A stretch of 64,000 nt of DNA, from the IMG/VR virus record IMGVR_UViG_3300017917_003637, positions 1 through 64,000 of that record. One strand, written 5' to 3'. Made by a program: the position numbers and the translations under genes. Position 1 is the first letter of the stretch; every line of letters begins with the position of its first letter. The notes below the pieces were generated by a model. That model did not search any database, was not told the DNA's origin, and saw only the letters and a list, made by a program, of their open reading frames with translations. Shown piece by piece: positions 6,811 through 57,785 of the stretch. Source of the stretch: a virus.

Positions 6811-6840
6811 TCCCCGTAGCAATACGGGGATTTTTTTTTT
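6811..6840 (+). terminator. intrinsic terminator
   Basis: TCCCCGTA-GCAA-TACGGGGA plus T10. Confidence 0.9.
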
Positions 6841-13443: not shown

Positions 13444-14245
13444 GGATTTAATAAGACAATATGTTGACACTGGTGTGGGTATCCCTGAATATCAGTTTAA
13501 TCAGTTATCTGCTGCTGATAAGAAGACGTACTTGCGTAAGATAGAGATAGGGATTAAATATAATAGTAGTAAAGTTAAATATTACTATGCTGTTTTACCA
13601 GAAGAGTCTCAATTATATCTTGTTAATCAGGATAATTCAAAAATAGAATACATAAAAGAACCAACTGAGAAAGTTCAGTTAGTAGCAGTTAGAAAATCTG
13701 GTTACGCAATAAAATACATAAAAAATCCAAGTGAAGACGTTAAATTAGCAGCAGTTAGACATTGTGGTAATGCAATAAAGTACATACAAAATCCAAGTGA
13801 AGAAGTTCAGTTAGCAGCAGTTAAAGAATATGGTCTCACAATACAATACATAAAAAATCCAAGTGAAGAAGTTCAGTTAGCAGCATTTAGAGAAAATAGT
13901 CATGCAATAAAATACATACAAAATCCAACTGAGAAAGTTCAGTTAGTAGCAGTTAAAAAATATGGTCTCGCAATACAACACATAAAAGAACCAACTGAGA
14001 GAGTTATGTTAGCAGCAGTTAGAGAAAATAGTGATGCAATAAAATACATAAAAAATCCAAGTGAAGAACTTCAGTTGGAAGCGGTTAGACAAAATGGTTA
14101 CTCAATAAAATACATACAAAATCCAAGTGAAGAAGTTCAGTTAGCAGCTATTAATAACGACATTGATTCATTATTATTCATAAAAAACCCAAGCAAAGAA
14201 GTTAAGGTTTTATATAAAAAATTATATTATAAAAATTTAAGATAA
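13433..14245 (+). CDS. DUF4116-like 22-aa tandem repeat protein
   Basis: About 8.5 copies of IKYIKNPSEEVQLAAVxxxGxA (66-bp DNA repeats). Confidence 0.75.
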   Translation: MNNRDLIRQYVDTGVGIPEYQFNQLSAADKKTYLRKIEIGIKYNSSKVKYYYAVLPEESQLYLVNQDNSKIEYIKEPTEKVQLVAVRKSGYAIKYIKNPSEDVKLAAVRHCGNAIKYIQNPSEEVQLAAVKEYGLTIQYIKNPSEEVQLAAFRENSHAIKYIQNPTEKVQLVAVKKYGLAIQHIKEPTERVMLAAVRENSDAIKYIKNPSEELQLEAVRQNGYSIKYIQNPSEEVQLAAINNDIDSLLFIKNPSKEVKVLYKKLYYKNLR

Positions 14246-15879: not shown

Positions 15880-15882
15880 AAA

Positions 15883-15907
15883 AAAAGGGACCTTTGCGGT
15901 CCCTTTG
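15883..15907. terminator. bidirectional terminator
   Basis: AAAGGGACC-TTTGC-GGTCCCTTT between convergent genes. Confidence 0.8.
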
Positions 15908-29268: not shown

Positions 29269-29958
29269 ATGCAAAGGGTTATAGAGAAACTACACATTAG
29301 TGAAATCCCACTAATATCAACTGTTACTAGAGATGAATTTATTACTGCTAGTGAAATAGCATTTGATTGCAAATTCGATGGACATTCATTATTTTATCCA
29401 TGGGTGTTACCAAAATCAATACCTAGTAAATTTAAGATTGGTGTGATTGTTGGTTCCAGCGGTTCTGGTAAATCAACACTTTTAAAAGAATTTGGTGTTG
29501 AAGAAACACCAATATGGGATTCAAATAAATCAATCATTTCACATTTTGAAACACCTGAAGATGGTATTAACAAGTTAAGTTCAGTTGGGCTTAATTCAGT
29601 ACCTTCATGGTATAAACCATATCACGTTTTATCCAACGGTGAAAAGTTCAGAGCTGATTTGGCCAGAAAGATAAGGTCCAATGCTGTTATAGATGAATAC
29701 ACCAGTGTTGTGGATAGAAACGTAGCCAAAGCGGCCAGTGTGTCGTTATCAAGGTATGTAAAGAATAATGATATTCATAACATTGTATTATCAACATGTC
29801 ATAGAGATATATTGGATTGGCTTGAACCTGATTGGGTAATAGATACAGATAGTGGTGAGCTAATCGACGGTTTTTTTTTGTCCGACCAGAAATCAAACTT
29901 GACGTATATCGCACAAGCCATGATTGTTGGAGAATGTTTAGCCAGCATCACTATTTAG
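29269..29958 (+). CDS. ABC-type ATPase (N-terminal part of a probable frameshift fusion with GNAT)
   Basis: GSSGSGKS, LSNGE, IDEYTS.VDR, STCH motifs. Confidence 0.85.
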   Translation: MQRVIEKLHISEIPLISTVTRDEFITASEIAFDCKFDGHSLFYPWVLPKSIPSKFKIGVIVGSSGSGKSTLLKEFGVEETPIWDSNKSIISHFETPEDGINKLSSVGLNSVPSWYKPYHVLSNGEKFRADLARKIRSNAVIDEYTSVVDRNVAKAASVSLSRYVKNNDIHNIVLSTCHRDILDWLEPDWVIDTDSGELIDGFFLSDQKSNLTYIAQAMIVGECLASITI

Positions 29959-30359
29959 ATGCTAAAGTGAATAAAGCTGCAAGATTTTATGTTGGGATAT
30001 GGGATGGGAACGTTGTTGCGTTTGGTGCTGCTATAACAATGCCAAATGGAGCTGTTAAAAACGCATGGAGGGGTCATAGGACCGTTGTGTTGCCAGATTT
30101 TCAAGGAATGGGTATAGGTGTTAGGTTTTCAGATATAATCGCGCAAATCCACTTAAATGAAGGTCACAGATATTTTTCAAGAACCGCACACCCGCGCATG
30201 GGGGAATATAGGGAGAAATCACAGTTGTGGAAACCAACCAGCAAAAATAAAAAATTAAGAACTGATGTTAAACATGAGAATGTTTATAACAATCATTTTG
30301 CGGATAATAAAAGGGTGTGTTATAGTCATGAATACATAGGCATAAAAAAAGAGGGATAA
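29880..30359 (+). CDS. GNAT/Mom-like acyltransferase (C-terminal part, -1 frame)
   Basis: VRPEIKLDVYR...W..F..HHYL...RTVVLPDFQGMGIG; the frame is open upstream of ATG 29934 back to the T9 run. Confidence 0.8.
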   Translation, partial: VRPEIKLDVYRTSHDCWRMFSQHHYLDAKVNKAARFYVGIWDGNVVAFGAAITMPNGAVKNAWRGHRTVVLPDFQGMGIGVRFSDIIAQIHLNEGHRYFSRTAHPRMGEYREKSQLWKPTSKNKKLRTDVKHENVYNNHFADNKRVCYSHEYIGIKKEG

Positions 30360-31484: not shown

Positions 31485-33989
31485 TTATGCTTTTTTCTTT
31501 GAAGTAGTTTTTTCTATTACTAGAGTTTCCTCATCCTTAGAATATACAATTTTAATCGTATCCCCTTCTTCAAAGGCTTCTGTTAGAATTTCGTCAGCCA
31601 CTAAGTCTTCAACGTAATGTTGGATGGCTCTGTTGAGTGGTCTGGCACCGTATTCTTCATCGTAACCTTGTGTTGCAATAAAATCCAAGGCTTCCTCTGT
31701 AATATCCAAATTAAATTTCAACTCAGCAAGTCTGCTTTCCAAGTGTTTGATTTCGATATCGATAATCTCTCTGATGTTTTCTTTTGAAAGAGAATTGAAC
31801 ACGATGGCTTCATCAATACGGTTAAGGAATTCTGGTTTGAATTTTTTCTTAAGAGCTTTGTCAATAATCGCTCTTGTTTTGGCTTGTTCGTTGAATGCGC
31901 TAACACCAGTTTCAAATCCCATGTTTTTACCAAATGAGTTTGCTTCTTTAACACCAATGTTAGAGGTCATAATGATAAGAGCGTTTTTAAAGTTAACCTT
32001 ACGGCCAAGACCATCGGTTAAATGACCCTCATCAAGCAATTGCAATAGCATATTGAATACATCATCATGAGCTTTTTCAATCTCATCAAACAAGATTACA
32101 CAGTGTGGTTTACGTCTAACTTTTTCAGTTAACTGACCACCTTGGTCGTAACCAACGTAACCTGGTGGTGGACCAACCAATCGAGATACAGAATGTTTTT
32201 CCATGTATTCAGACATGTCAACTCTAACAAGAGCTTCAGCGTCACCATATACATGTTCAGCTAGCAATTTAGCCAAGAGTGTTTTACCAACACCTGTTGG
32301 TCCTAAGAAGATAAATGAACCAACTGGTTTATTTTTATCCTTGATACCGATTCTGTTACGTTTAATTGCTTTAACAACCTTAACAACAGCATCTTCTTGT
32401 CCAATAACTTTTCCGCTCAACTCTTTGTCCATGTTCATAAGACGTTTGCTTTCTTGAGTTGAAATTTTGTTAAGAGGAATACCAGTCATCATTGAAACAA
32501 CTTCAGAGATTAACTCAACACCAACTTCAGTTACTTTATCATCTAAGTTTGTCTGCCAATCGTGGATGGCTTTTTCTAAGTTGTCAGTGATTTCTCTTTC
32601 TTTATCACGAAGTTTAGCAGCTTCTTCGTATTGTTGTTTTTTTACAACTTCAGTCTTTTTATCAAGGATTTCTTTGATTTGTTCTTCAAGTTCTTTTATA
32701 TTCTCTGGTTTTTCAACAGATACGTTTGTTGTGGCACCAGCTTCATCCAACACATCGATAGCCTTGTCTGGCATCGCTCGGTCCATAATGTATCTTGCGG
32801 ATAGCTTAACACATTCTTCAATGGCTTCTTCGGTGTATTTTACTCTGTGGTGTTTTTCGTATTTTTCTTTGATGTTCATCAAAATAACTTTGGTTTGCTC
32901 TAAAGTAGGTTCTTCAACAAGCACTTGTTGAAAACGTCTTGTAAGAGCACCGTCTTTTTCGATGTTTTCACGGTATTCGTCGAGTGTTGTTGCACCAATG
33001 ATTTGAATCTCACCTCTAGCCAAGGCTGGTTTAAAGATATTTGAAGCGTCCAGTGAACCGCTTGAATTACCAGCACCAACAATGGTGTGTAACTCGTCTA
33101 TGAACAATACGATATCTGGGTTGGATTTACACTCTTCAAGAATGGCTTTCATTCTTTCTTCAAATTGACCACGGTATTTAGTACCTGCAACAATTGACGC
33201 TAAGTCTAGCATGTAGATTTTTTTACCAGTAAGTGTTCTTGGTGCGTTGCCTTCAAAGATAAGTTGAGCAAGCCCTTCAACGATTGCTGTTTTACCAACA
33301 CCAGGTTCACCAATCAAAACTGGGTTGTTTTTCTTTCTTCTTGATAGAATTTGAGAAACTCTTTTGATTTCAACTTCTCTACCTACAACTGGGTCTATTT
33401 GACCTTTTTCAACAGCCTTGGAAATGTCTCGACAAAAATTGTCCAACACTGGTGTTTTTGTTTTGCTGTCTTTGTTCTTGGGTTTTCTGAATGAATCGTT
33501 TTCATCGTGGTCTTCATTGCTAAAAGCACTGTTTTTGTGTTCTAATTTGTCCATATTTGTAACGGTTTTAAAAAATTTGTTGTAGGTTATACCCATTTCA
33601 GCTAGTAAACTAACCAAGGGTGTTTTTGAATCTAGGATACTAAGCATGACGTGAGTAGTATCAATAATATTGTCTTTTAATTTTTCACAGTGTTTGTCTA
33701 AATTTTTGATAATCACTTTCATTTCATCTGAAAAAGGCAAATTATTTCTTCCGTGGTATCCAGTTCTTGGGGTTAAGTCACTTTTTCTTGTAAAGTCTGA
33801 AACCTTATCATATAAGTCAAATGTGTCTATACCCATTATACTTAAGGCTCTAGCACACTCATTTTCATTATCAATCATCATAGACAGCACAACGTGTTCA
33901 GGCTTAATTCTATTGTCATCATGGCCCTTGGCTTCTTTTGTTGCAATAGTCATAATGATTTTAACTTTTGGGTCTATTTTTCTGTCCAT
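31485..33989 (-). CDS. clpC: ClpC-type AAA+ chaperone/unfoldase
   Basis: Clp N-domain, GEPGVGKT and GPTGVGKT Walker A motifs, UVR-like QQYEEAAKLRD, MGF loop. Confidence 0.92.
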   Translation of the reverse strand: MDRKIDPKVKIIMTIATKEAKGHDDNRIKPEHVVLSMMIDNENECARALSIMGIDTFDLYDKVSDFTRKSDLTPRTGYHGRNNLPFSDEMKVIIKNLDKHCEKLKDNIIDTTHVMLSILDSKTPLVSLLAEMGITYNKFFKTVTNMDKLEHKNSAFSNEDHDENDSFRKPKNKDSKTKTPVLDNFCRDISKAVEKGQIDPVVGREVEIKRVSQILSRRKKNNPVLIGEPGVGKTAIVEGLAQLIFEGNAPRTLTGKKIYMLDLASIVAGTKYRGQFEERMKAILEECKSNPDIVLFIDELHTIVGAGNSSGSLDASNIFKPALARGEIQIIGATTLDEYRENIEKDGALTRRFQQVLVEEPTLEQTKVILMNIKEKYEKHHRVKYTEEAIEECVKLSARYIMDRAMPDKAIDVLDEAGATTNVSVEKPENIKELEEQIKEILDKKTEVVKKQQYEEAAKLRDKEREITDNLEKAIHDWQTNLDDKVTEVGVELISEVVSMMTGIPLNKISTQESKRLMNMDKELSGKVIGQEDAVVKVVKAIKRNRIGIKDKNKPVGSFIFLGPTGVGKTLLAKLLAEHVYGDAEALVRVDMSEYMEKHSVSRLVGPPPGYVGYDQGGQLTEKVRRKPHCVILFDEIEKAHDDVFNMLLQLLDEGHLTDGLGRKVNFKNALIIMTSNIGVKEANSFGKNMGFETGVSAFNEQAKTRAIIDKALKKKFKPEFLNRIDEAIVFNSLSKENIREIIDIEIKHLESRLAELKFNLDITEEALDFIATQGYDEEYGARPLNRAIQHYVEDLVADEILTEAFEEGDTIKIVYSKDEETLVIEKTTSKKKA

Positions 33990-35852: not shown

Positions 35853-37118
35853 ATGGGATTTGTAAACAACCTAGATAAACAATACACAGACCTACTCAGA
35901 GATATCCTAGAAAACGGTACACGTAAGGGTGACCGTACTGGGACTGGAACAATTTCACTATTTGGAAGACAAATCAGACACAAAATGTCAGAAGGATTTC
36001 CACTTCTAACTACAAAGAAAATGCCATTCAAAACAATCGTAACAGAACTTCTTTGGTTCTTACGAGGTGATACAAACATCAAATACCTTGTTGATAATAA
36101 TTGTCATATTTGGGATGGAGATGCTTATAAGAATTTTATCAACCACCCTGATTATAAAGCCGAGTCTGTCGCTGATTTAATGAGGTCACAAGCTGGTCAA
36201 TTGGCAAAATGCTCAACACAAGAAGAATTCATAAACAGAATCAAAACTGATGATAAATTTGCTAAGAAGTGGGGTGAATTAGGTCCAATTTATGGTAAGC
36301 AATGGAGAAAATGGAGTGTTTTACCTGATAAGTATGGTGCTTACAATCGTAACCCCATTGACCAAATCCAAAATCTAATCAACGACCTTAAAACAAATCC
36401 TGACTCAAGACGATTAATGGTCAACGCTTGGAATGTTGGTGAATTAGACCAAATGGTTCTTCCACCTTGTCATTATGGATTTCAAGTTTATACAAGAGAG
36501 TTGAGTTTGGATGAAAGAAATGATTTGCTTTACAAAAAAATAGGTGGTGAACATAAAAGAGAAAATTGTTTTAGTGATGAAGAGTTTGAAAGAGAGACAT
36601 TACAAGATTGTAAAGCTTTTAACATTCCAACCAGAGCAATCTCTTTAATGTGGAATCAACGTTCAGTAGATACTTTCTTAGGTTTACCATTCAACATTGC
36701 TTCTTATGGATTGTTATTGGAGATAATTGCAAAAGAAGTTAATATGGTACCCGATGAATTGATAGGTAACTTGGCTGATGTACATTTGTATTCAAACCAT
36801 GTGGACCAAGCCATGGAACAAATTGGTAGAGATTTAACCGATGAGGAAAGATACAACATTTGGTTCAACAACAATTATGAAACTGGTATGGAGAGATATT
36901 TTGACCCTAACAATTTACCAGATTTTGACAATGAGTATTATGAACCAACACCTAAACGAACAAGAGAACCTTTTCCATTACCTAAATTAACATTTAACCC
37001 TATATTCTTAGCCAACCTAGAACATAAAGGGTTTGATGAAGCTATAAATGGTGAAGTTAATTTTCAATTAGAAAACTATCAATCACATTCAATAATTAAA
37101 GCACCACTTTCAAACTAG
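35853..37118 (+). CDS. thyA: thymidylate synthase
   Basis: DRTGTGT, ELLWFLRG, LPPCH, QRSVDTFLGLPFNIASY, HLYSNH. Confidence 0.96.
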   Translation: MGFVNNLDKQYTDLLRDILENGTRKGDRTGTGTISLFGRQIRHKMSEGFPLLTTKKMPFKTIVTELLWFLRGDTNIKYLVDNNCHIWDGDAYKNFINHPDYKAESVADLMRSQAGQLAKCSTQEEFINRIKTDDKFAKKWGELGPIYGKQWRKWSVLPDKYGAYNRNPIDQIQNLINDLKTNPDSRRLMVNAWNVGELDQMVLPPCHYGFQVYTRELSLDERNDLLYKKIGGEHKRENCFSDEEFERETLQDCKAFNIPTRAISLMWNQRSVDTFLGLPFNIASYGLLLEIIAKEVNMVPDELIGNLADVHLYSNHVDQAMEQIGRDLTDEERYNIWFNNNYETGMERYFDPNNLPDFDNEYYEPTPKRTREPFPLPKLTFNPIFLANLEHKGFDEAINGEVNFQLENYQSHSIIKAPLSN

Positions 37119-37704: not shown

Positions 37705-40125
37705 ATGCCAACTACAAATAATCTTAACCAATTTTTGGTACCAGCTCAAGACGCTTTTTTATATCAATTAGTCTATAACAAAGTATATGGTGGTAGAACA
37801 GGTTGTACTGTCAACATTAACGGCACGACAGTTCAAATGGGTGCAAATTCTTCAATCGATATATTAGTGGAAACTATAAGTGGTGGTACTGGATGTTTGG
37901 TATCTGGTGACAAACCAAATGTGTATGGTGATAGTCCTCAATACAAATATGTTCCACAAACTTTTGTTTCCGTATGGGATACCAGAAGAACAAGTACTGG
38001 TAGTAGCACCGCAACACAAGTTAGATTGCCTTTAATTTCAACAGGTACGTATAATTTTATTGTTGATTGGGGTGATGGGAGTACAGATAGAATAACTGTA
38101 TGGAATCAAGCTCAAACTACTCACACATATACTAGAGCTGGTGTTTATCAATTAACAATAACTGGAACATTGTATGGTTTTACATTTTACAATGGGAGCA
38201 CTGGTGTTGGAGATAGACTTAAATTGTTAACAATTTTTAAATGGGGGACTGGTTTTAGATTAGGAAACAATGCTGGTTATTTTTGGGGATGTGAAAATCT
38301 TCAATTAAGTGAAGTTGAAGATGTGTTAGATTTAACCAACACAACGCATTTTGGTAGTATTTTTAGAGATTGTTTTAATCTTACAACCGTAAACAGGATA
38401 AATGAGTGGAACACGTCAAACATTACCCTTATGGGTGGTGTTTTCTTAAACTGTGTTAGATTTAACCAAGATATTAGTAATTGGGATACATCTAATGTAA
38501 CTGACATGGTCCTTATGTTTTCTTGTGCTGGAAGCCTTAGAGGTGTGTTTAATCAAAATATTGGAAATTGGAATACAAGTAAGGTTACAAATATGCAGCA
38601 AATGTTTTCTAACCAACCTAACTTTAATCAAGATATATCAACAAAAGTTGTTACTAGAGCAAATGGTTCATCGTATGTTGCTTGGGATACATCTAATGTG
38701 ACTACCATGAATTTTATGTTTGGGTGTGGTGCTGGTATTAGAGGTATGTTTAATCAAAATATTGGAAACTGGAATACTAGTAAAGTTACAAATATGGCTT
38801 CTATGTTCCAAAACCAAGTTGAGTTTAATCAAGATTTATCAACAAAAGTTGTTACCGTTGGTAATTCAACATATATCGCATGGAGTACGACCAATGTAAC
38901 AAACATGACGTTTATATTTGGTGGTGGTGAAAGAAATGGTAAATTTAATGGAAATGTAACTAATTGGGATATTAGTAAAATTACTAGTATGCAAGCTTTA
39001 TTTGCGAATAAAATTGATTTCAATCAAGATATATCAACAAAAGTTGTTACCGTTAGTGGTTCATCTTATATTGCTTGGAACACAACGAACGTAACTATTT
39101 TAACCTCATTATTTTCGTGTTCAGTTAATTCTGGTAATTTTAACCAAAATATTGGAAATTGGGATACTAGTAGAGTTACATCTATGTCCTTTATGTTTAA
39201 TGGTCAACCTAAATTTAATCAAGATATATCAACAAAAGTTGTTACCGTTAGTGGTTCATCGTATATTGCTTGGAACACAGCTAGTGTGACTACTATGGAT
39301 TCAATGTTTAATTCTGTAGTTGTTGACGGTGAGTTTAATCAAAATATTGGAAATTGGAATACTGGTAGGGTAACAAGTATGAATCAATTGTTTACTGGAC
39401 AGCCTAATTTTAATCAAGATATATCAACAAAAGTTGTTACCGTTAGTGGTTCATCATATGTAGCTTGGAACACGTTGAGTGCTACTAGTATGAGTTTCAT
39501 GTTTTTTACTTATGGACCAACATTTAATAGATTGTCTGGTACTTTTAATCAAAATATTGGAAACTGGAACACTAGTAGAGTAACAACCATGGCCTCTATG
39601 TTTGTTAATCAAGCTAATTTTAATCAAAACATAGGAACAAAACAAGTTACAGTTAGTGCGTCGACTTATTCTGCTTGGACTGTTTCTGCTGTTACTAGTA
39701 TGTTTGATATGTTTTATATTCACAATCCTACCACAACTGGTGGGCTTGCTGGCTCATTCAATAACAGTGGTTCTACATCAATAAACAATTGGGACGTTAG
39801 AAGATTAAGTGCTGCTACAGATATGTTTAACTATCAAATAGGTTTTAATCAACCCATAGGGAATTGGAATATAAGTGGTGTTACTAATTTTAGTTCTACT
39901 GGTAGCACTATAGGAACTGAAGGTTTCATGTTTGGTAAAACTAGCAACGATTATTCTAGTGCAAATTATGACGCATTGTTGATTGGATGGGCAACAAGAA
40001 ATGTAAGACCAAACCAATTATTAAACATGGGTACAATAAAATATTCTAGTGCAGCCGTTTCAGCTAGAAGTGTATTAACATCGGCACCTAACAATTGGAC
40101 AATAATAGATGGAGGGTTAGTATAA
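37705..40125 (+). CDS. DUF285/BspA-like repeat protein with PKD-like domain, probable virion surface protein
   Basis: VDWGDG (PKD-like); many FNQ.I.NW.TS.VT.M..MF repeats; near-identical DNA repeats with ~195-bp period. Confidence 0.85.
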
Positions 40126-40420: not shown

Positions 40421-40663
40421 ATGCCAAAAAATAATGATGTATATAGCGTAATTGTACCAGCTCAAACTCCAAATTTGACAGCACACACTTACTCTACCAT
40501 TTATGGTGGTTCTTCTGGTTGCACCGCTGTAATTAATGGTGTAACTGTTAGTGTTGGCGCGGCTTCTTCTTTTGATTTGACAATCAGAAGTATAAGTGGT
40601 GCTACAGGATGTTATTTACTAGGTGACAATAAAAACGTATATTTAGGTTCACCTAATTTATAG
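40421..40663 (+). CDS. small beta-rich protein homologous to the N-terminus of the 37705 product
   Basis: YGG..GCT..ING.TV..GA.SS.D.....ISG.TGC...GD shared. Confidence 0.75.
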   Translation: MPKNNDVYSVIVPAQTPNLTAHTYSTIYGGSSGCTAVINGVTVSVGAASSFDLTIRSISGATGCYLLGDNKNVYLGSPNL

Positions 40664-40696: not shown

Positions 40697-41914
40697 ATGG
40701 AAAGAAATTTTAGAATCAACCCAGTTGGTCTTAAAGGAAATGAAATCAACGAGCGTATGAAACAACTTATGGGTGTAACACCTATAAACGAAGGTTTATC
40801 TCGTTCAACAGTTGAATTAACCAAAATTGGTCCAGATGGTAAAGCATATGGTATTGTAAGAGAAAATCATGAATATTACATAAAAGTATCTGACAAGACC
40901 GAAAACCTTACTGTTGAGGACTTTAAATACATTGGTGGTCTTCAAAATAAAAAATCAGAAGCGTATCCATCATATGCTAAAGCTACTAAACACTTAAACT
41001 TAAAATTTAACTCTATTTGCGAATCATTTGATATTGTGAATACATTCAACGTATTTGTTGATGATAACTTGTTATCTGAAGGTGCTGCTAAAGAAGCTAC
41101 TAAACACATTACAGATGCTAAGGGTAAAGAGTTAGGTGGTAAAGTAAAAGAAGAAGGTGGTGATAACTTGGCTGAGAAAAAAGTCATGGATGAATTAGAA
41201 GAAGTTACTCTTACTGAAGATGAGTTAGCTATTGACGCTATGCTTAACGAAAGTGATGAAGAAGACTTGGATGAGTCAGCTCAAGGTGAAGTTGGTGCAT
41301 ATGCTCATGAAAAATCTAAGAAAAAAGACAAAGAAAAAGATGAAGATGAAAAAGACTTAGACGAAGCTGAATCTAAAAACAACCCATGGGCTATCTGTAC
41401 CGCTAGTGTTGGTCGTGAAGACAAAGAAAAATACGAAGCGTGTGTTAGAGACGTTAAAAAACAAAAAGGTGTTAAAGAAGAATTAAAAGGTGGTCAACAC
41501 AAAATCGATGCTAATAAAAATGGTAAGATTGATGGTGAGGATTTTAAACTTCTTAAAAAAGGTAAAACCAATGAAAACATTGATGACCAGATGTCTACTG
41601 ACGAATTAATGGATAAACTAGATAATATGTCAGCTAAAGAATTGTTACAATTGTTAGGTGATGCTGGTAGAGACTTGAAAAATGTAATTGCTAGAAAATT
41701 ATCTACAGGTATGGATAAAGCTAGAGATTTTTTTGATAAGCAATATCCAGATGTTAACGAAGAAATGACTGACAAACAAAAGAAATTTGCTGCTTTGGCC
41801 GAACCTAAAGATAAAATCACATATGCTGATAAAATTGCTGGTGCTACCAAAGATGAAGCTATGACACTTGAAGAAATTCAAGAGGCGATTGCTGATTTAA
41901 AAAAAAAACTTTAA
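40697..41914 (+). CDS. modular head/core protein, part 1
   Basis: Acidic linkers with repeated L/I-x-E sites; EF-hand-like DANKNGKIDGEDF module; ends at an A10 run. Confidence 0.7.
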   Translation: MERNFRINPVGLKGNEINERMKQLMGVTPINEGLSRSTVELTKIGPDGKAYGIVRENHEYYIKVSDKTENLTVEDFKYIGGLQNKKSEAYPSYAKATKHLNLKFNSICESFDIVNTFNVFVDDNLLSEGAAKEATKHITDAKGKELGGKVKEEGGDNLAEKKVMDELEEVTLTEDELAIDAMLNESDEEDLDESAQGEVGAYAHEKSKKKDKEKDEDEKDLDEAESKNNPWAICTASVGREDKEKYEACVRDVKKQKGVKEELKGGQHKIDANKNGKIDGEDFKLLKKGKTNENIDDQMSTDELMDKLDNMSAKELLQLLGDAGRDLKNVIARKLSTGMDKARDFFDKQYPDVNEEMTDKQKKFAALAEPKDKITYADKIAGATKDEAMTLEEIQEAIADLKKKL

Positions 41915-43392
41915 GCGAAGCTAAAAAATATAAATTGAAGTTGGATAAACCAGCGTCAGAGGCTCCTATTGCCCCTGCCCCTGCTCCAGCTGAACCTACA
42001 ACCGAACCAGCTGATGAAGCTGGTTTTGGTGATTTTGGGGGTGAGGAAATGCCAGCAGAACAACCAACTGGGGATGAAGCACCAGCAAACGATATGCCTG
42101 ATTTTGAAAAAGAACCATTTGACGCTGGAGTTGATGCTGATGAGGAAACTGACCCTAAAAAATTTATTGAGCAATTAAGTGGTAAATTAGGTCAGTCATT
42201 AAGACAGTATACCAAAGACCAAGGTCAACCAGATTTTGAATTGGAAAAATTCGCAATTAATTCAGTTATTTCAGCAACAAACACTGCTGATATGGATGAA
42301 GAAGATAGAAATGATATTATCAAAAAAATAGAAAAATCTGGTGAAGATGAAACACAAGACTTTGGAGATGATAATCAAGCTGGCGCCGACGCTGGAGATG
42401 ATTCTTTCGGTGGACCCGATAACGGGGCTGGTAATGCTGATGAGTTTGATTTTTCATCTGATGAAGAACCAGTTCAAGAAGGTAAATTTATGCTTGACAA
42501 AACAAAAAAACTAAGCATCTTTGCACCTGAGGGCAGTGAAGAAGCAAAATTTAAACACATAAATGAAATGAAAGAAGGTTCAAACAATTACATGTTCTGG
42601 CAAAATTTAAAAACTATTGTACATGCCGCATCTGAATTATTAAAAATGGATTGTGACCAAGTTGATACATTGTTATCAGATGGTCATGGTTGGGCTCTTG
42701 ACCACATGGCTACATCCGCTGATGACGTTGAAGAAGTGTATCACTTTGTTGAAGGTCGTTTAAACGATACCCATGAGGATTCTGGTGAAGAAATGGATTA
42801 TTCAAAATGGGCTCAACCAATGAAATTAAACCAACCAGTTACTGTGTCTAAAGACTTAGCTTATCACTTAACTAACGAAATCGCGTTGGGCGAATCTATT
42901 TTCAGATATGGTTCTGAAAAATTCCAAAACCTTGTTAAAGAAGTAAGACAATTAAAAGCTAAGGGTCTTATTGATTTGAATGAAAATGACCAATTTATCG
43001 TTGAAGATTATGACAACGGTTTTGTTGTGATTGGTGAAAACAAAGTTAAATTAAATACAATCTTTGAAGAATTTGATGCTGAGACAATCAACGAAGCTGA
43101 GTATCAAGGTAAAAAAGTACAGTTAGGTAAGCCTAAACGTGGTGGTTCTAAAAAATTCTACGTTTATGTGAGAAATCCTAAGACTGGTAAAGTTAAAAAA
43201 GTATCATTTGGAGCTCAAGGTGGTGGTGGTAACTTAGCGGTTAAATTAAAAGACCCTAAGGCTAGAAAAGCATTTGCTGACAGACACAACTGTAAGGCTA
43301 AAAACGATAAAACAAAAGCTGGGTATTGGGCATGTAGATTGCCTAGATATGCTAAATTATTAGGTTTATCAGGTGGTGGTACTTGGTGGTAA
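41908..43392 (+). CDS. modular head/core protein, part 2 (-1 frame continuation)
   Basis: Only a TTG start is available near the 5' end; the frame is open back through the A10 run (TLSEAKKYKLK); C-terminal basic EAEYQG...RHNC...YWAC module. Confidence 0.7.
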   Translation, partial: TLSEAKKYKLKLDKPASEAPIAPAPAPAEPTTEPADEAGFGDFGGEEMPAEQPTGDEAPANDMPDFEKEPFDAGVDADEETDPKKFIEQLSGKLGQSLRQYTKDQGQPDFELEKFAINSVISATNTADMDEEDRNDIIKKIEKSGEDETQDFGDDNQAGADAGDDSFGGPDNGAGNADEFDFSSDEEPVQEGKFMLDKTKKLSIFAPEGSEEAKFKHINEMKEGSNNYMFWQNLKTIVHAASELLKMDCDQVDTLLSDGHGWALDHMATSADDVEEVYHFVEGRLNDTHEDSGEEMDYSKWAQPMKLNQPVTVSKDLAYHLTNEIALGESIFRYGSEKFQNLVKEVRQLKAKGLIDLNENDQFIVEDYDNGFVVIGENKVKLNTIFEEFDAETINEAEYQGKKVQLGKPKRGGSKKFYVYVRNPKTGKVKKVSFGAQGGGGNLAVKLKDPKARKAFADRHNCKAKNDKTKAGYWACRLPRYAKLLGLSGGGTWW

Positions 43393-43858: not shown

Positions 43859-44941
43859 ATGAAACCATATAGCGAAATAGAAAAAGGGAACATAGTAAGA
43901 CGCACATTTTCAGACAACGTACCTGAGAGTGAGTTGGTGTGGCATAGAGACCATGAGGATAGGGTTGTTTTACCATTAAACGAGAATGATTGGATGGTTC
44001 AATTTGATAATGAATTACCACGAAAACTTGTTGTTGGTGAAGAATACTTTATACCTAAAAATACTTTTCATAGAGTTATAAAGGGGTCTGGTGAATTGCA
44101 AGTTGAAATCATAAAAACTGATTTTAACGAAGTTATTGAAGAAGGTGATAAGAAAGCTAAAAGAGACGCTTGTTATCACAAGGTAAGAGCTAGATATGAT
44201 GTATGGCCATCTGCTTATGCTTCTGGTGCTCTTGTTAAGTGTCGTAAGGTTGGTGCTTCTAACTGGGGTAACAAATCAAACGAGACTGAAGACATAGGTA
44301 AAAGCGGTAAAAAACAGTTTAAAAAAGACTTACAAAAAGACCCAGATTACTTAAAATATAAAGACAGCGATAATGAGTTTGGTGTACCAAATGTAACAAC
44401 AGATGACCCATTTATCAAAAAAGGAAGATACACTAGAGTTGGTAAAGAAGACTTAGATGAATTAACAGTTTATGAAGCTAAAAAAACTGATTTCTCAAAA
44501 GAAAAATCGCAAGGTCTTCATGGATGGTTTTCTAGAAAAGGTGGTGAAGGTTCTAGCGGTTGGGTTGATTGCAACACATGTAGAAAAGACCCAGATACTG
44601 GTAGAAAGAAATGTAAACCATGTGGAAGACAAGAGGGTGAGAAAAGAAAATACCCAGCATGTCGTCCAACACCGTCTGCATGCGGTACAAGAGGCAAGGG
44701 TAAAAAATGGGGTAAAAAAAGTACCTCAGAGGGCTTGAATATCTCAGAAAATTTTAGTATATTTGATAAAGACTATTTAAAAATGAGATTACAAGAAACA
44801 TTTAACCACGAAGAACCGTTGGTATTACCAGCTGAACCTAAAACTAAACCTAAGGAATCTCCAATGGTTCAACCATCAAGACGCAATAAGCCTTTCTTAC
44901 CTGAAAGAGAAACGCAACCAGACCCAAAAGCTGAAAACTAA
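43859..44941 (+). CDS. cupin-like domain plus basic Cys-rich modules
   Basis: WHRD.EDR...FIPK.TFHRVIKG (cupin); DACYHKV...WPSAYASG; GWVDC...PCGR...YPACRP. Confidence 0.7.
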   Translation: MKPYSEIEKGNIVRRTFSDNVPESELVWHRDHEDRVVLPLNENDWMVQFDNELPRKLVVGEEYFIPKNTFHRVIKGSGELQVEIIKTDFNEVIEEGDKKAKRDACYHKVRARYDVWPSAYASGALVKCRKVGASNWGNKSNETEDIGKSGKKQFKKDLQKDPDYLKYKDSDNEFGVPNVTTDDPFIKKGRYTRVGKEDLDELTVYEAKKTDFSKEKSQGLHGWFSRKGGEGSSGWVDCNTCRKDPDTGRKKCKPCGRQEGEKRKYPACRPTPSACGTRGKGKKWGKKSTSEGLNISENFSIFDKDYLKMRLQETFNHEEPLVLPAEPKTKPKESPMVQPSRRNKPFLPERETQPDPKAEN

Positions 44942-47666: not shown

Positions 47667-49433
47667 ATGCTAACAGCACAAGAAATATTTAAAGAATATT
47701 CTAAGTGTCTCATGAATCCAATTTATGCGATTGAGACATACTTGGAAACGTTCGATAAGACGCAAGAAGGGTTTGTTCCCTTTAAACTATTTCCTAGACA
47801 AAAGGAGATTATAAACGCATACGAAAAGAACAGATTTAACTTGGTGACAAAACCAAGACAAGCTGGGGTTTCTACCACAACAGCAGCATATATGGCGATA
47901 AAAGTTGGATGGGCCGACGAGGATAACCCAGAAGCGGTTCTTATCATCGCCAACAAACAAGAATTGGCCTTCGAGTTCTTGGCCAAGATTAAAGACTTTT
48001 TATCTCAGTTACCTAGATGGGTTTGGGGTCATGAATATTATGGTAACCCTAAAAACGAGGGTAAATCAATTTTCCTTACCGATTCTAAAAAAGAAATTAA
48101 GTTACCTAACGGTAGTCGTGTTAAAGCAGTTGCAACATCTAAGGATGCTTTGCGTGGTTTTACACCAACCTTCCTTATCATGGATGAGGCTGCGTATATT
48201 GACAACGGAGCTGAGGTATTTGGTGCCGCTCTTACCGCATTAGGTACTGGGGGTAGAGCTACACTTATTTCTACACCTAACGGTATGGACCCATTATACT
48301 ACAAAACATATGACCAAGCAAGAACCAAAAAGAACAATTTCAACATTATTGAAATGAAATGGTATGAAGACTTGCGTTACAACAAAGACTTGAGATGGGT
48401 TAAGGGTGATGATATTGAAAAAGAAATATATTTTACTTTTGAATCCTATCAAAGAAGAATTGCAGATGGTTGGAAACCCACATCAAGCTGGTACGAAGAG
48501 ATGTGTATGGGTATGAACAACGATGCCCGTATGATTGCCCAAGAGCTTGATGTATCGTTTATTGGTTCTGGGGGTAATGTGATTAGTGAAGAATTTATCG
48601 AATACCACGAGAAAAACAATGTGTTGGAACCTAAGATAACCATGGGTCTTGAAAATGAGATATGGATATGGGAAGAACCACAGGAAGGACACCAATACAT
48701 TATGGGTGTTGACGTTTCTAGAGGTGATGGTGAGGATAGTTCTACGATTGTAATAATTGATTTTACGACCATGGAACAAGTAATGGAGTATCAAGGTAAG
48801 ATTCAACCAGACTTATTGGCTCAAATCGTTGAGGAATACGGTGAATTGTATGAGGCCTATACTGTTGTCGATGTTACTGGTGGTATGGGTGTGTCAACAG
48901 TTCTTAAATTACTTGAATTTAATTATAAGAGATTGCACTACGATGACGCAACTGGTAAAATTTTATCGGCTAGACAAAGAGAATTAAATAGCCATTTGAA
49001 GAAGGATAAAATCCCAGGATTTCACGCAACAAATGTTCGTGTACCGATGATTTCAAATTTGGAATATAAAATTAGAACCAATGCTATCAAGATACGTTCT
49101 AGTCGCTTGACTTCAGAAATGAAAACATTTATTTATAAGAATGGTAGACCTGACCACATGGAAGGTTATCATGATGACTTACTTATGTCATTGGCAATGT
49201 GTCTTTGGGTTATGGAACACTCATTTAAAAAACTTGAAAGACTAGAGAAACAAAATAAAGCGATATTAAATAGTTGGCTTAGTGGTGCGAATGTTTCGTC
49301 AACACCAACGATTAGAGATAAAGACCCAAATACTGGGAATATTACACAGAAAATAAACCCCACACATACTGCATATAAAAATGTTCAAGACCCTAGAGGT
49401 CAGTATTCGTGGTTATTTGCTAAACCAAGATAA
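47667..49433 (+). CDS. terL: terminase large subunit (T4 gp17-like)
   Basis: KPRQAGVST, LIMDEAA, STPNG, GVDVSRGDGEDSS, HDDLLMS. Confidence 0.95.
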   Translation: MLTAQEIFKEYSKCLMNPIYAIETYLETFDKTQEGFVPFKLFPRQKEIINAYEKNRFNLVTKPRQAGVSTTTAAYMAIKVGWADEDNPEAVLIIANKQELAFEFLAKIKDFLSQLPRWVWGHEYYGNPKNEGKSIFLTDSKKEIKLPNGSRVKAVATSKDALRGFTPTFLIMDEAAYIDNGAEVFGAALTALGTGGRATLISTPNGMDPLYYKTYDQARTKKNNFNIIEMKWYEDLRYNKDLRWVKGDDIEKEIYFTFESYQRRIADGWKPTSSWYEEMCMGMNNDARMIAQELDVSFIGSGGNVISEEFIEYHEKNNVLEPKITMGLENEIWIWEEPQEGHQYIMGVDVSRGDGEDSSTIVIIDFTTMEQVMEYQGKIQPDLLAQIVEEYGELYEAYTVVDVTGGMGVSTVLKLLEFNYKRLHYDDATGKILSARQRELNSHLKKDKIPGFHATNVRVPMISNLEYKIRTNAIKIRSSRLTSEMKTFIYKNGRPDHMEGYHDDLLMSLAMCLWVMEHSFKKLERLEKQNKAILNSWLSGANVSSTPTIRDKDPNTGNITQKINPTHTAYKNVQDPRGQYSWLFAKPR

Positions 49434-49746: not shown

Positions 49747-51807
49747 ATGGCAAAAGAAAATTTAACAATATTTCAAAGGTTAAACAGAGTTGTTAACCCT
49801 AATTACAATCCACCACAAAAACAAACCACACAACGTTTTAATTTGGGTGGTGGTGAGTTGCTTAAGACTACAAGCAAAGCTGAATATGAATCGGCTAAAT
49901 TACAAGCACAACAAAATAAATACTTACAAAGCACATGGAAACGAGTTGAAAACGGTTTGTTTCAACAATCAATAAATTATGAAACAACTCGTGTTGGTTC
50001 TTATTCTGATTTTGAAGCCATGGAGTTTTACCCGACAATTGCTGCTGCGTTGGATGTGATGATGGAGGAATCTACCACGGTAAACGATAGAGGTAGAGTG
50101 CTTAATATTTATTCAGATAGCAAGCGTGTTAAGGGTATTCTTGAGGATTTATTTTTTAACAGACTAGATTTACACACTACGTTACCAATGTGGGTTAGAA
50201 ACACATGTAAATATGGTGATAATTTTGTCTACTTAAATATCAATGATAGACAAGGTATTGTATCCGCAAAACAAATGCCTAACTATGAAATGGAGCGTAG
50301 AGAAGCTGGGTTATATGATTTGGTTAGTGGTAGAGAATATTCTGATAACCAAGATGAAAATAAAGACAGAGTAAAATTCTATTGGAGAGGTCGTGATATT
50401 GAATTTAACTCATGGCAAATCGCCCATTTCCGTTTGTTAGGCGATGATAGACGTTTACCATACGGTACCTCGGTGTTAGAAAAAGCAAGACGTATTTGGA
50501 AACAACTTATCTTATCTGAAGACTCTATGCTTGTATATCGTGTAACTAGAGCACCAGAAAGACGTGTATATAAAATATATGTTGGTAACATTGATGATGC
50601 TGACGTTGAACAATACGTGAACGCGATTGCTGATAGATTTAAGCGTATGCCAATTATTGACCCTCAAACTGGACAAATTGACTTGAGATATAACCAATTA
50701 TCAAACGACCAAGATTTCTTTATCCCAGTTAGAGATGAGAGCGCTCCGAATCCAATTGATACGTTACCAGGTGCTGCCAATTTGGACCAAATTGCAGATA
50801 TTCAATACTTACAAGGTAACTTATTTACTGCTTTGCGTGTTCCTAAACCATTCTTAGGTTTTGAAGAAGCAACTGGTGAAGGGAAAAATCTTGCTTTGCA
50901 AGATATACGTTTTTCTAGAACCATAAACCGTATTCAACAATCTATGCTTCAAGAGTTAAACAAGATAGCAATTATTCATTTGTTTATTCTTGGATTTGAA
51001 GAAGATTTAGATAATTTTACGCTTACACTTAATAATCCATCAACACAAGCGGAAATGCTTAAAGTTGAACACATGCAAACCAAAGTTACTCTTGTTAAAG
51101 ATTCTGTTACTGATATCGGAAATGGTTTTGGTGTTATGTCTTGGACCAGAGCTCACAGAGAAATATTGGGTTGGTCTGACGATGAAATCAAACAAGACTT
51201 ACTTGAACAACGTATGGAGAAAGCCGCTGCTGCTGAATTACAAAATACAGCCGCAGTTATTAAACATACTGGTATGTTTGATGCCGTTGATAAAATATAC
51301 GGTGATTACCAAGCCGCTCTTAAAGGCGCTGAAGGTGGTGAAGCCGCTGGCGGAGAAGCTGGTGGCGGAGGCGGAGGCTTCGGCGGTGGTGGTCTAGGTG
51401 GTGAAGATTTAGACTTTGGAGCTGAGGGTGGTGCTGAAGGTGGTGAAGAAGCTGCTGGTGGTGAAGAAGCTGCTGGTTTTGGAGGTGAAGCTGGTGCCGC
51501 TCCTGAGGCTGGTGCCGCTCCTGAGGCTGGTGCAACACCTGAAGCTGGTGGTGAAACACCAGAAGGTTTAGCTGAATCACTTAAAAAAACTGAAAAAGTC
51601 TTAACAGAAAGAAAAGAATACTTGGCTAAAAAGTTAAATGAAAGGAACCAAAAATATCAAAAAAGATTTGTTGATGTATTGGTGGAATCTGTTAAGGAAA
51701 AAAACGGAAATGAAGATGTTAGTGTTAAAATATATGACAAGAACGTTAAAATTAACGAAGACGTTAACAATATGATAAATGACATAAATAAAATGTTGGA
51801 TGAATAA
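49747..51807 (+). CDS. gp20: portal protein (T4 gp20-like)
   Basis: EDSMLVYRVTRAPERRVYKIYVGN, DFFIPVR, IDTLPG, ALRVPK. Confidence 0.93.
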   Translation: MAKENLTIFQRLNRVVNPNYNPPQKQTTQRFNLGGGELLKTTSKAEYESAKLQAQQNKYLQSTWKRVENGLFQQSINYETTRVGSYSDFEAMEFYPTIAAALDVMMEESTTVNDRGRVLNIYSDSKRVKGILEDLFFNRLDLHTTLPMWVRNTCKYGDNFVYLNINDRQGIVSAKQMPNYEMERREAGLYDLVSGREYSDNQDENKDRVKFYWRGRDIEFNSWQIAHFRLLGDDRRLPYGTSVLEKARRIWKQLILSEDSMLVYRVTRAPERRVYKIYVGNIDDADVEQYVNAIADRFKRMPIIDPQTGQIDLRYNQLSNDQDFFIPVRDESAPNPIDTLPGAANLDQIADIQYLQGNLFTALRVPKPFLGFEEATGEGKNLALQDIRFSRTINRIQQSMLQELNKIAIIHLFILGFEEDLDNFTLTLNNPSTQAEMLKVEHMQTKVTLVKDSVTDIGNGFGVMSWTRAHREILGWSDDEIKQDLLEQRMEKAAAAELQNTAAVIKHTGMFDAVDKIYGDYQAALKGAEGGEAAGGEAGGGGGGFGGGGLGGEDLDFGAEGGAEGGEEAAGGEEAAGFGGEAGAAPEAGAAPEAGATPEAGGETPEGLAESLKKTEKVLTERKEYLAKKLNERNQKYQKRFVDVLVESVKEKNGNEDVSVKIYDKNVKINEDVNNMINDINKMLDE

Positions 51808-53787: not shown

Positions 53788-54513
53788 ATGGATATAAATT
53801 ATAAAGACTTTAGAATACTTAAGAGAGGTGAATCTGGTTGGGGTGGCCTTATTGAGCACGATGCTGGGTATATTAGCCCAGATGAACCTAGAAACCAACC
53901 ATTCATCAACGAAATCAAAAAACTAGACGGTGGCAGCAAATTAGCCATAGTCGAGCCGTTAATCGTATATGTAGTACTTCAAAAATACGGAATCCTTAAT
54001 CGTAACGGTAGGGTATATCCAGAATCAGTATTAAAAAAACAAGTTAATCTTTATCAAGAAGCAATTCGTGAGCGTAGAGCGGTTGGTGAATTAGACCACC
54101 CAGAATCTTCAATTATTGCTGGTGATAGAATTTCACATAATATTATTGAAACTTGGTGGGAAGGACAAACCCTTATGGGTAAGATGGAAATCCTTATGAC
54201 TCCAGGTTTTATAAACTATGGTATTGTATCAACTAAGGGTGATGAGGTTGCAAACTTATTGAGAAACAGAATCAAGATTGGAGTTTCTTCTAGAGGTGTT
54301 GGTTCGCTTAAAGAAGGTAAAAACGGAGAACAAATAGTACAAGATGATTTTGAAATTATTTGTTGGGATGTGGTTACAGCACCTTCAACTCCAGATGCTT
54401 GGATTGGCCGTAGCGCTGAAGAAATGAAGCCATATGTTGAAAACACTGAAGTTAAAAAACCAATTATCAAAGAAACACTTAAGGATAACTTAGATAAATT
54501 TTTAGCTGATTAA
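53788..54513 (+). CDS. gp21: prohead core protease (T4 gp21-like)
   Basis: NRNGRVYP, GELDHP, GVSSRGVGS, WDVVTAPSTPDA. Confidence 0.93.
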   Translation: MDINYKDFRILKRGESGWGGLIEHDAGYISPDEPRNQPFINEIKKLDGGSKLAIVEPLIVYVVLQKYGILNRNGRVYPESVLKKQVNLYQEAIRERRAVGELDHPESSIIAGDRISHNIIETWWEGQTLMGKMEILMTPGFINYGIVSTKGDEVANLLRNRIKIGVSSRGVGSLKEGKNGEQIVQDDFEIICWDVVTAPSTPDAWIGRSAEEMKPYVENTEVKKPIIKETLKDNLDKFLAD

Positions 54514-55925: not shown

Positions 55926-57785
55926 ATGTCACATTTATTGACTTCAGGACAAGTTGGTAACATCGGATTAAACCACATGAAGGCTATCCGTTTGGAAACC
56001 CAACAAAAATGGGACTCTTTAGGATTCTTAGATGGTCTTAAAGGTCACGTTAAAGAAAATATTGCTCAGTTATATGAAAACCAAGCTTCAAACTTGTTAA
56101 CTGAGGCAACTAACGCTACATCATCTGGTTCTTTCGAGACTGTAGTATTCCCAATCGTAAGAAGAGTTTTCTCAAAATTATTAGCTAACGACGTAGTATC
56201 TGTACAAGCTATGAACATGCCAATTGGTAAATTGTTCTACTTTGTGCCTCTTACTTCAGAGCGTGTAAACGCTGCTGGTCAAGGTGGTGACCCATATGCT
56301 ACAACTGCATCTAGTGATGTTTGGTCTACTAACCCAGTATACTCTGCTCACACTTCAATGGGTAACGAAGGTATTCCATCATGTGTTAAAGCTGCTGGTA
56401 GTACTTGTACTGTAACTCCATTTGCTGCTAAAAACTTGTACGATATATTCTACAACGATGGTTTATTCGATAACTCAAAAGGTACTCTTACAATTAAGAC
56501 TGCTAGCCCACTAGGTGTTTACACTTTAGGTACTGACGGTGCTTTCAGTATTGTAACTGGTACTGGTACTACTTTACCTACAGCTGCTGACGGTTCTGTT
56601 AGAAGCGTAATTGTTGCTCTTTCTGGTTTCTCAGGTGGTGCAGGTTCTAACGGTAGAGAAGTGTTGACAGGTCCTGATGGAAACAACATGGATACTGAAT
56701 CATTCTTAGCGTCTCTTCACGTAATCGCTGGTTCTACATTGTTAGACGCAGATGGTAACGCTGTTGTTGCTATCAACAAAGAAGTTCCATTCCGTCTTGT
56801 TACTCAAAGATACGGTGTTGGTATCGTTTCTGGTCCTAACGTTGTAACTGATGGTAACGGTGTATGTTGGTTAGAGTTAGATTTGACTCACCCAGTTGGT
56901 ACTTCTGCTACTGCTGGTGCATCTTACCCAGGTACTGCAACTTATGATGGTTATGTAGGTGTTTCTGCAACAACATTCCCTTCATTCTCAGGTTTCAGTG
57001 CTGCATGGGCTGAATACGCAACATTAGAGTTCGAAACAGAAATGGGTGAAGTATCATTCAGACTTGATGAAGTTGTTGTTTCTGTAGAAGAAAGAAAATT
57101 AAGAGCTACTTGGTCTCCAGAGTTAGCACAAGACGTTAGTGCATTCCACAACATCGATGCTGAAGCTGAGTTGACAGCTATGTTGTCAGAACAAGTTGCT
57201 GCTGAGATTGACCGTGAAATCCTTAGAGATTTACGTAAAGCTGCTGCATGGCAATTGCGTTGGGACTACAACGGATGGAGAAAAACTTCAACTGCTGCTC
57301 AACCATATACTCAAAAAGAGTGGAACCAAACTTTAATTACTAAAGTTAACCAAATTTCTGCTCAAATCCATAAATCTACACTTAGAGGTGGTGCTAACTT
57401 CATCGTTGTATCTTCAGAGATTTCTGCAATCTTCGACGACTTAGAATACTTCCACGTGTCAGACGCTAACCCTGAGCAAGACCAATACAACATGGGTATT
57501 GAGAGAATCGGTTCATTAGGTGGTAGATATCAAGTATATCGTGACCCATATGCACCAGCATACTCAATCATCATCGGTCACAAAGGTAAATCATTATTGG
57601 ACACTGGTTACATCTACGCTCCGTATGTACCATTACAGTTGACTCCAACAATGTATAACCCATTCAACTTTGCTCCAGTGAAAGGTATCATGACTCGTTA
57701 CGCTAAAAAAGTGGTTAACAACAGATTCTATGGTCACTTGAGAGTTGATGGTGTACAAACCTTCAACATCAATGAATTAAGATAA
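55926..57785 (+). CDS. gp23: major capsid protein (T4 gp23-like)
   Basis: VQAMNMPIG, RKLRATWSPELAQD, AEIDREI, YAPYVPL, GIMTRYA. Confidence 0.95.
   Translation: MSHLLTSGQVGNIGLNHMKAIRLETQQKWDSLGFLDGLKGHVKENIAQLYENQASNLLTEATNATSSGSFETVVFPIVRRVFSKLLANDVVSVQAMNMPIGKLFYFVPLTSERVNAAGQGGDPYATTASSDVWSTNPVYSAHTSMGNEGIPSCVKAAGSTCTVTPFAAKNLYDIFYNDGLFDNSKGTLTIKTASPLGVYTLGTDGAFSIVTGTGTTLPTAADGSVRSVIVALSGFSGGAGSNGREVLTGPDGNNMDTESFLASLHVIAGSTLLDADGNAVVAINKEVPFRLVTQRYGVGIVSGPNVVTDGNGVCWLELDLTHPVGTSATAGASYPGTATYDGYVGVSATTFPSFSGFSAAWAEYATLEFETEMGEVSFRLDEVVVSVEERKLRATWSPELAQDVSAFHNIDAEAELTAMLSEQVAAEIDREILRDLRKAAAWQLRWDYNGWRKTSTAAQPYTQKEWNQTLITKVNQISAQIHKSTLRGGANFIVVSSEISAIFDDLEYFHVSDANPEQDQYNMGIERIGSLGGRYQVYRDPYAPAYSIIIGHKGKSLLDTGYIYAPYVPLQLTPTMYNPFNFAPVKGIMTRYAKKVVNNRFYGHLRVDGVQTFNINELR

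Follow-up and report, generated by a model that had tools for sequence, protein, structure and literature searches.

A conserved A10 run between two reading frames as a probable recoding site in a gene family of giant T4-like phages

Does a run of ten adenines at the end of a phage gene serve to make two proteins, one short and one long, from the same N-terminus? The question is raised by a 64,000-nucleotide stretch of viral DNA (positions 1 to 64,000 of IMG/VR record IMGVR_UViG_3300017917_003637; hereafter the 64-kb window), in which two open reading frames (ORFs) on the plus strand overlap at such a run. ORF1 (40697..41914) is read in the 0 frame into a 405-aa product that consists of an N-terminal domain, a variable acidic linker and a C-terminal tail ending in ...DLKKKL, and its last codons are GCT GAT TTA AAA AAA AAA CTT TAA. 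ORF2 (41896..43392) lies in the –1 reading frame and is open from just 5' of the A10 run, which occupies 41899..41908 on the plus strand and is read in the 0 frame as xxA AAA AAA AAA. A shift from one frame into the other has narrow limits: on the 5' side the –1 frame is closed by a TGA (41893..41895, plus strand), and on the 3' side the 0 frame ends at the TAA (41912..41914, plus strand). The gap between these two stops is 16 nt, it is filled by A10, and nowhere outside it could a –1 shift join ORF1 to ORF2. After the TGA the –1 frame reads F K K K T L S E A K K Y K L K L and stays open until 43392, with a TTG at 41935 as the earliest start-like codon of ORF2. A –1 shift computed within A10 gives an 898-aa fusion whose trans-frame part, 494 aa from 41908 (T L S E A K K Y K L K L ...), comes from ORF2. 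These coordinates, the ORF1 end, the –1 frame of ORF2 and the length of the fusion are all as an original prediction from this DNA had put them.

The A run and its two reading frames

Searching IMG/VR with ORF1 and ORF2 returned 124 loci. Our main comparison set comprises 76 distinct IMG/VR junctions, the one of the 64-kb window included, and an extra set of about 25 viral and metagenome loci, obtained with a fused homolog as query, brings the total to about 100. At every locus that holds both homologs (~100/~100), the ORF2 homolog is offset by –1 from the ORF1 homolog, and all of the extra loci combine this offset with A10; one seeming exception, L226, is a contig that begins at the run. Among the 76 junctions the overlap contains A10 at 64, A9 at nine and A11 at three, and not one has a run shorter than nine. 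The phase of the run differs with its length (phase 0 for A9, phase 2 for A10, phases 0–2 for A11) and a –1 shift is needed in each case, the consensus being A10 in the same phase (59/76). The split and the A run are kept at all of these loci, as expected if the original prediction of a –1 recoding event is right. This constancy stands out against the divergence of the loci, which derive from many different metagenome datasets: ORF1 identity drops to about 40%, the flanks of the run vary freely, and both frames remain intact at protein divergence of up to 60%. The close relatives, with 55–78% ORF1 identity (L003–L013), all have A10. Across relatives the 0-frame stop lies between 1 and 24 nt from the run, and the +1 frame shuts after 2–42 codons, so that only the –1 frame contains a long conserved ORF. 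The family is large, comprising 755 clusters at 50% identity (E ≤ 1e-10) for the N-terminal domain.

Comparison of the junctions also identifies the element that is kept. The original prediction had pointed to the heptamer T-TTA-AAA, which is indeed present in phase at 41896–41902 of the 64-kb window. However, the triplet 5' of the run is TTT in just 19 of the 76 loci, and T_TTA_AAA is therefore not the conserved element; that part of the prediction has to be given up in favor of the A9–A11 run, which is universal. Nor does a heptamer of the A_AAA_AAG type ever substitute for the run at these loci. In the alignments, the conserved signal is the A run.

Lysine codon usage indicates that such runs are otherwise avoided. 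In these genes 80% of the Lys codons are AAA, yet KKK tripeptides are written entirely in AAA in only two of 61 cases elsewhere, compared with 76 of 76 at the junction. The 64-kb window (33% GC) contains a single A run of ten or more, the slip site itself, where about six are expected under a first-order Markov model, so that long A runs are under-represented in this DNA, not frequent.

Both frames that cross the run behave as coding sequence. Amino-acid conservation in the –1 frame begins directly 3' of the run, with the pattern K-K-K-[ST]-L-x-E...K-Y-K-L-K-L. An independent start for ORF2, which according to the original prediction would have spoken against recoding if conserved, was considered and rejected: near the junction 61 of the 76 loci have no ATG, 31 of the 76 have no ATG, GTG or TTG, and no start is conserved. 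For the 0 frame, the most informative loci are the 22 that have five more 0-frame codons (mostly V-Y-T-L-K-stop), in which conservation is 0.67 in the 0 frame and 0.45 in the overlapping –1 frame. Nucleotide differences over this tail number 671 at 0-frame third positions, against 339 and 214 at the other two. Because the 0-frame tail is better conserved than the –1 frame and changes mainly at third positions, the short product is selected and no accident. By these comparative measures the short 0-frame tail and its stop are under purifying selection, coding constraint is present in both the ORF1 tail and the –1 continuation, and the site, the –1 offset and both frames are all selected.

Relatives that encode the fusion as a single ORF provide evidence for the long product. 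In IMG/VR, L240–L242 (contigs of three samples that represent two genomes sharing about 96% identity) have A11 and carry the N- and C-terminal parts in one frame, and their nearest split relatives have A10. We also surveyed the state of the gene in the best 150 of the 755 N-domain cluster representatives. In this sample 105 proteins end in KKK no more than 14 residues from the C-terminus, as in the split type, and 22 hold the ORF2 part in frame. KKK is present at the junction in seven of these 22 and absent from 15, most of which are weaker-scoring representatives; 11 of the 15 group in one tree clade. Split and fused states cluster in a quick N-domain tree, which is unrooted and poorly resolved, yet at least six changes of state are required. 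Plainly fused homologs had been named in advance as a result that would count against the original prediction. They were found, with A11 or with no run at all; their bearing is the reverse, since a fusion encoded as a single ORF argues that the long product is real and that the split is no error. In some relatives, then, the fused protein exists as one ORF. Taken together, the comparisons make it very likely that A10 is a selected recoding site with two products, a short and a long one, and on this point the original prediction of programmed –1 recoding is borne out by the split, offset and run kept in about 100 relatives and by the constraint on both frames.

Slippage of RNA polymerase and other explanations

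We think that slippage of RNA polymerase is probably the mechanism, in preference to –1 slippage of the ribosome. A transcript or ribosome that kept register through the run would give the 405-aa ORF1 protein ending in ...DLKKKL, and a shift to –1 inside the run would give the 898-aa fusion, ...DLKKK-TLSEAKKYKLKL..., which adds three conserved modules. On a homopolymer as long as the 9–10 bp RNA:DNA hybrid, the nascent RNA could realign so that some mRNAs gain one extra A, and standard translation of these mRNAs would continue into ORF2. Some of the long product may in addition come from –1 slippage of the ribosome on A_AAA_AAA. Bacterial RNA polymerase slips efficiently in vivo once a run reaches nine, and this is also where selection against runs begins to show (PMC1088944; PMC5009743). 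We favor insertion of an A during transcription because the run is never shorter than nine, because it has the length of the hybrid and because no conserved RNA structure was found beside it. In 60-nt segments the mean folding z-score is –0.48 upstream and –0.73 downstream of the run, compared with –0.52 for controls from the same genes, so that structure is not enriched; 30-nt folding energies beside the run equal those of controls from the same genes, and the flanks of the run in the 64-kb window fold at –2.7 and –0.6 kcal/mol. No shared upstream motif resembling a Shine-Dalgarno sequence was visible in the junction sequences by eye, without counting. The locus also has the comparative features by which functional slippage was recognized by Baranov et al., 2005 (PMC1088944): an A or T run of at least nine lies in an ORF overlap and is kept in non-identical homologs, and selection acts against such runs in the rest of the coding sequence (2 of 61 KKK; one A10 where about six are expected). 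The mechanism, the ratio of the products and roles for both isoforms are what we infer from these features.

A second –1 junction in the same genome fits a polymerase that slips on A and T runs alike. A T9 run at 29871–29879 is located where an ABC-ATPase-like ORF (29269–29958) overlaps a –1-frame GNAT acetyltransferase ORF (29934–30359). Among 59 distinct relatives of this site, 50 have the –1 arrangement, 47 of them with T9; in two relatives with T10 the ORFs share one frame, and in about six distant relatives they are simply fused and no run is present. The pattern at T9 is the same as at A10 and supports a general habit of slippage.

Several points weigh against a transcriptional origin of the shift. 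Every run of nine or more contains an in-phase A_AAA_AAA and is therefore compatible with a purely ribosomal event, and the transcriptional and ribosomal routes would produce the same peptide. The transcripts with A11 that polymerase slippage calls for are predicted from genome comparison. In addition, slippage on 9-mers is suppressed in some AT-rich organisms (PMC1088944). The explanation that benefits is –1 frameshifting or sliding of the ribosome on A_AAA_AAA, in which two Lys-tRNAs would re-pair one base back on an mRNA that is a faithful A10 copy. We regard it as possible, with doubt. The heptamer is in phase at every locus, the 64-kb window has T_TTA_AAA besides, the long conserved ORF is found in the –1 frame alone while the +1 frame closes after 2–42 codons, and heptamers of the form A_AAA_AAN are known –1 sites in bacteria (PMC4066793). 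However, a heptamer would be enough for the ribosome, yet no relative has fewer than nine A's and none has A_AAA_AAG instead. The spacing between run and 0-frame stop is not constant (1–24 nt), the T9 site of the same genome is likewise exactly of hybrid length, and neither a conserved downstream structure nor, by eye, a shared Shine-Dalgarno-like element was found beside the run. A stimulator is not obligatory for low-level –1 shifting by the ribosome.

Explanations that involve no recoding fare considerably worse. If ORF1 and ORF2 were separate genes, with ORF2 started at the TTG at 41935 or by termination-reinitiation, the A run would merely encode a Lys-rich tail. That TTG is present, and ORF2 domains do stand alone as small proteins in other phages. 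But independent genes would be distributed over the three relative frames in thirds, and the offset is –1 at ~100 of 100 loci; the –1 frame (KKK-S/T-L-x-E...KYKLKL) is conserved from the run onward, upstream of any start; the 31 junctions without ATG, GTG or TTG would have no start nearby; the all-AAA codon choice would be left without explanation; and homologs fused in frame exist. We consider separate genes highly improbable, and a similarly small chance is given to phase variation at the DNA level, in which replication slippage would toggle A10 and A11 and so switch the long protein on or off between genomes. The small in-frame A11 clade with A10 in its nearest relatives, together with the six or more split/fused changes that the quick tree requires, could suggest such toggling. 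Against it, A11 has been passed down in one clade and is not dispersed over the family, L003–L013 are uniformly A10, and A10 in the same phase is found in 59 of 76 loci. The least credible of these explanations, in our estimate, takes the true gene to be A11 in frame and ascribes the split to a mistake in assembly or sequencing, or to decay into a pseudogene. Homopolymers are error-prone and A11 relatives are in frame, but about 100 assemblies of many datasets would all need to contain the same error, at differing run phases and lengths that all require –1, and neither purifying selection on the 0-frame tail and stop nor intact frames at up to 60% protein divergence is expected of it.

Protein modules and genome context

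The fusion consists of the N-terminal domain, the acidic linker and three conserved blocks. The N-terminal domain (40697..41086, plus strand; aa 1–130) is the best-conserved part of the protein in an alignment of 60 relatives, with a mean column identity of 58% and 28 invariant columns. At the other end, a basic, beta-rich C-terminal domain (43087..43338, plus strand) was recognized by its match to phrog_7595. The same domain occurs, either as a small stand-alone protein or appended to others, in marine myo- and podophages, and in Roseobacter phage CRP-6 it is encoded three genes upstream of the capsid gene and downstream of the tail genes. A mini-module containing Cys (N-P-W-A-I-C-T-A-S-V-G ... 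Y-E-A-C-V) is encoded at 41381–41446, corresponding to aa 229–250 of ORF1. Its position shifts among relatives, to the ORF2 part in L226 and to aa 164–190 in P0002, and it looks shuffled.

Homology searches found little to name the protein by. Pfam, including a permissive single-module search, returned nothing above cut-off for ORF1 and ORF2. In PHROGs, phrog_7595, of unknown function, was the one match for the two ORFs, and no head or chaperone family was hit. The ESM Atlas gave unnamed viral clusters, plus weak leads to DUF6321 and DUF5824, and the BFVD matches were all to uncharacterised proteins of phages, two of which bear the label XkdF or ChaB for a stretch of about 85 residues. A tblastn search with ORF1 against 50,697 GenBank phage records found no match. 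AlphaFold models have a pLDDT of 75.8 for the N-terminal domain and of 58.8 for ORF2, which has a confident core at about 225–385; no convincing fold in the PDB was found for either with Foldseek/VIA-align, the best Z values (5.3 and 6.5) being in the noise range of the tool.

Just after the junction, the –1 frame encodes L-S-E (41911..41919, plus strand), a candidate T4-type prohead-protease site that is followed by the conserved K-Y-K-L-K-L. In 71 of 74 relatives KKK is followed by a [LIVM]-x-E motif at a distance of no more than 14 aa, compared with 42% of background windows, and conserved [LIVM]-x-E motifs occur at fusion positions 30, 126, 172, 406, 593 and 798, although the motif alone is no proof of cleavage. 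Cleavage at the L-x-E after the junction is what this conservation would predict.

The source of this DNA is an uncultured giant T4-like phage. The complete record is a viral contig of 86.8 kb, estimated to be 26% complete, which implies a phage of about 330 kb. ORF1 and ORF2 belong to a conserved block upstream of terL (47667–49433), which forms a T4-type head module with a gp20-like portal gene (49747–51807). Further downstream, a gene for a gp21-type prohead serine protease of the Peptidase_S77 family (53788..54513, plus strand; E 3.6e-26, 92 bits against a cut-off of 27) lies between the portal gene and a gp23-like capsid gene (55926–57785) encoding 619 aa with a long N-terminal extension. 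A virion protein that is processed in the prohead would fit the gp21-type protease, the [LIVM]-x-E motifs at module borders and the synteny up to terL, and a role as head protein, as the original prediction had it, is plausible but unproven. The same prediction had placed the gene outside the usual tail-chaperone context, and this holds: the products have 405 and 898 aa, the block is upstream of terL, and no chaperone family is matched.

The neighborhood contains other genes of modular appearance. Just upstream of ORF1, an 80-aa ORF (40421–40663) adjoins ORF1 in 69 of 75 loci and has a module in common with the C-terminus of a DUF285 (BspA-like) protein (37705–40125), the tblastn matches being at the same coordinates. 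The next gene after ORF2 (43859–44941, 360 aa) matches phrog_727, phrog_38880 and phrog_3477, all of unknown function. Modules of this gene are found inside the ORF2 homologs of other phages (for example L113:4580-5212), which suggests that modules move between neighboring genes arranged as beads on a string. Near the late block are also a ClpB-like AAA+ chaperone or protease (31485–33989, minus strand; phrog_4871, E 4e-254) and a 421-aa thymidylate synthase that contains an insertion (35853–37118). The 86.8-kb record contains further homopolymers of at least nine, namely T9 at 65280–65288 and at 76984–76992, both beyond the 64-kb window. On brief inspection, a T10 at 6831–6840 has an intergenic or terminator-like look and an A9 at 15878–15886 is located at the stop of the ORF at 14245–15879.

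Comparison with known recoding systems

Recoding on a homopolymer is a known trick, encountered here in a large and undescribed phage gene family; an incomplete literature search found no published description of the slip site in jumbo phages. Gene callers split this gene in every assembly, and the long protein is consequently absent from phage protein catalogues. Annotation pipelines could model slippage on runs of hybrid length. The presence of A10 and T9 in one genome suggests that these phages make regular use of such slippage in expressing their genes. The family itself is a well-sampled natural experiment, with hundreds of lineages that have A10, a few with in-frame A11 and distant ones with a plain fusion.

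The closest precedents are bacterial. In tssM1 of Citrobacter rodentium and tssM of Yersinia pseudotuberculosis (PMC4256274), a truncated ORF likewise ends just 3' of a poly-A run, mRNAs that have gained A's are back in frame so that a short and a full-length protein are made, and related genes are single ORFs elsewhere. Those runs are A11, in a bacterial secretion gene, and were verified by RNA and protein work, whereas the present run is A10, in a phage late gene, and known from sequence comparison, and here the split state is the norm across a very large family. The dnaX gene of Thermus thermophilus, with its tau and gamma products, has in common with our locus a homopolymer of hybrid length (9 nt), no apparent need of a stimulator and two products sharing an N-terminus (PMC5009743). 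Slippage there leads from a full-length frame to the shorter product; at A10 the genomic frame would give the short product and slippage the long one, and it is the A11 clade of the family that would act like dnaX. The 9A and 9T sites of IS elements and of Shigella spa13 and mxiE (PMC1088944; PMC5009743) also combine a conserved ORF overlap with a conserved run of the 9A type. They belong to another class of genes, and the phylogenetic breadth is far larger here, with 755 clusters at 50% identity.

Phages are better known for shifts by the ribosome. Those of lambda G/GT and T7 10A/10B are –1 shifts on heptamers, usually with a stimulator, and they add a modest extension. Like the gene studied here, they concern phage late genes in which one start yields a short and a C-terminally extended protein (see also PMC5009743). 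The present site differs from both in its 9–11-nt homopolymer, the absence of a recognizable conserved structure and the 494-aa extension, and it differs from lambda G/GT in being upstream of terL and not between the tube and tape-measure genes.

A more distant parallel, by functional analogy, is retroviral Gag/Gag-Pol: in the phage, too, a minority –1 fusion could co-assemble through its shared N-terminal part and then be cut beside the junction by the protease of the particle. It is the conserved L-x-E after the run, together with the gp21-type protease, that brings this system to mind. As a speculative model, which we put forward with low confidence, homopolymer slippage would be a routine expression device in a clade of giant aquatic T4-like phages, and the A10 gene would be of the Gag/Gag-Pol kind. 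An abundant short protein and a minority fusion would share the N-terminal assembly domain; the fusion would take its modules into the prohead as cargo, in a set proportion, and the gp21-type protease would cut at the L-x-E just 3' of the slip site and at module borders. The two systems belong to different virus realms and differ in the mechanism of the shift, and packaging and cleavage are hypothetical on the phage side. If release by the protease proves true, the A10 gene would represent a phage parallel to the dosing of retroviral Gag-Pol.

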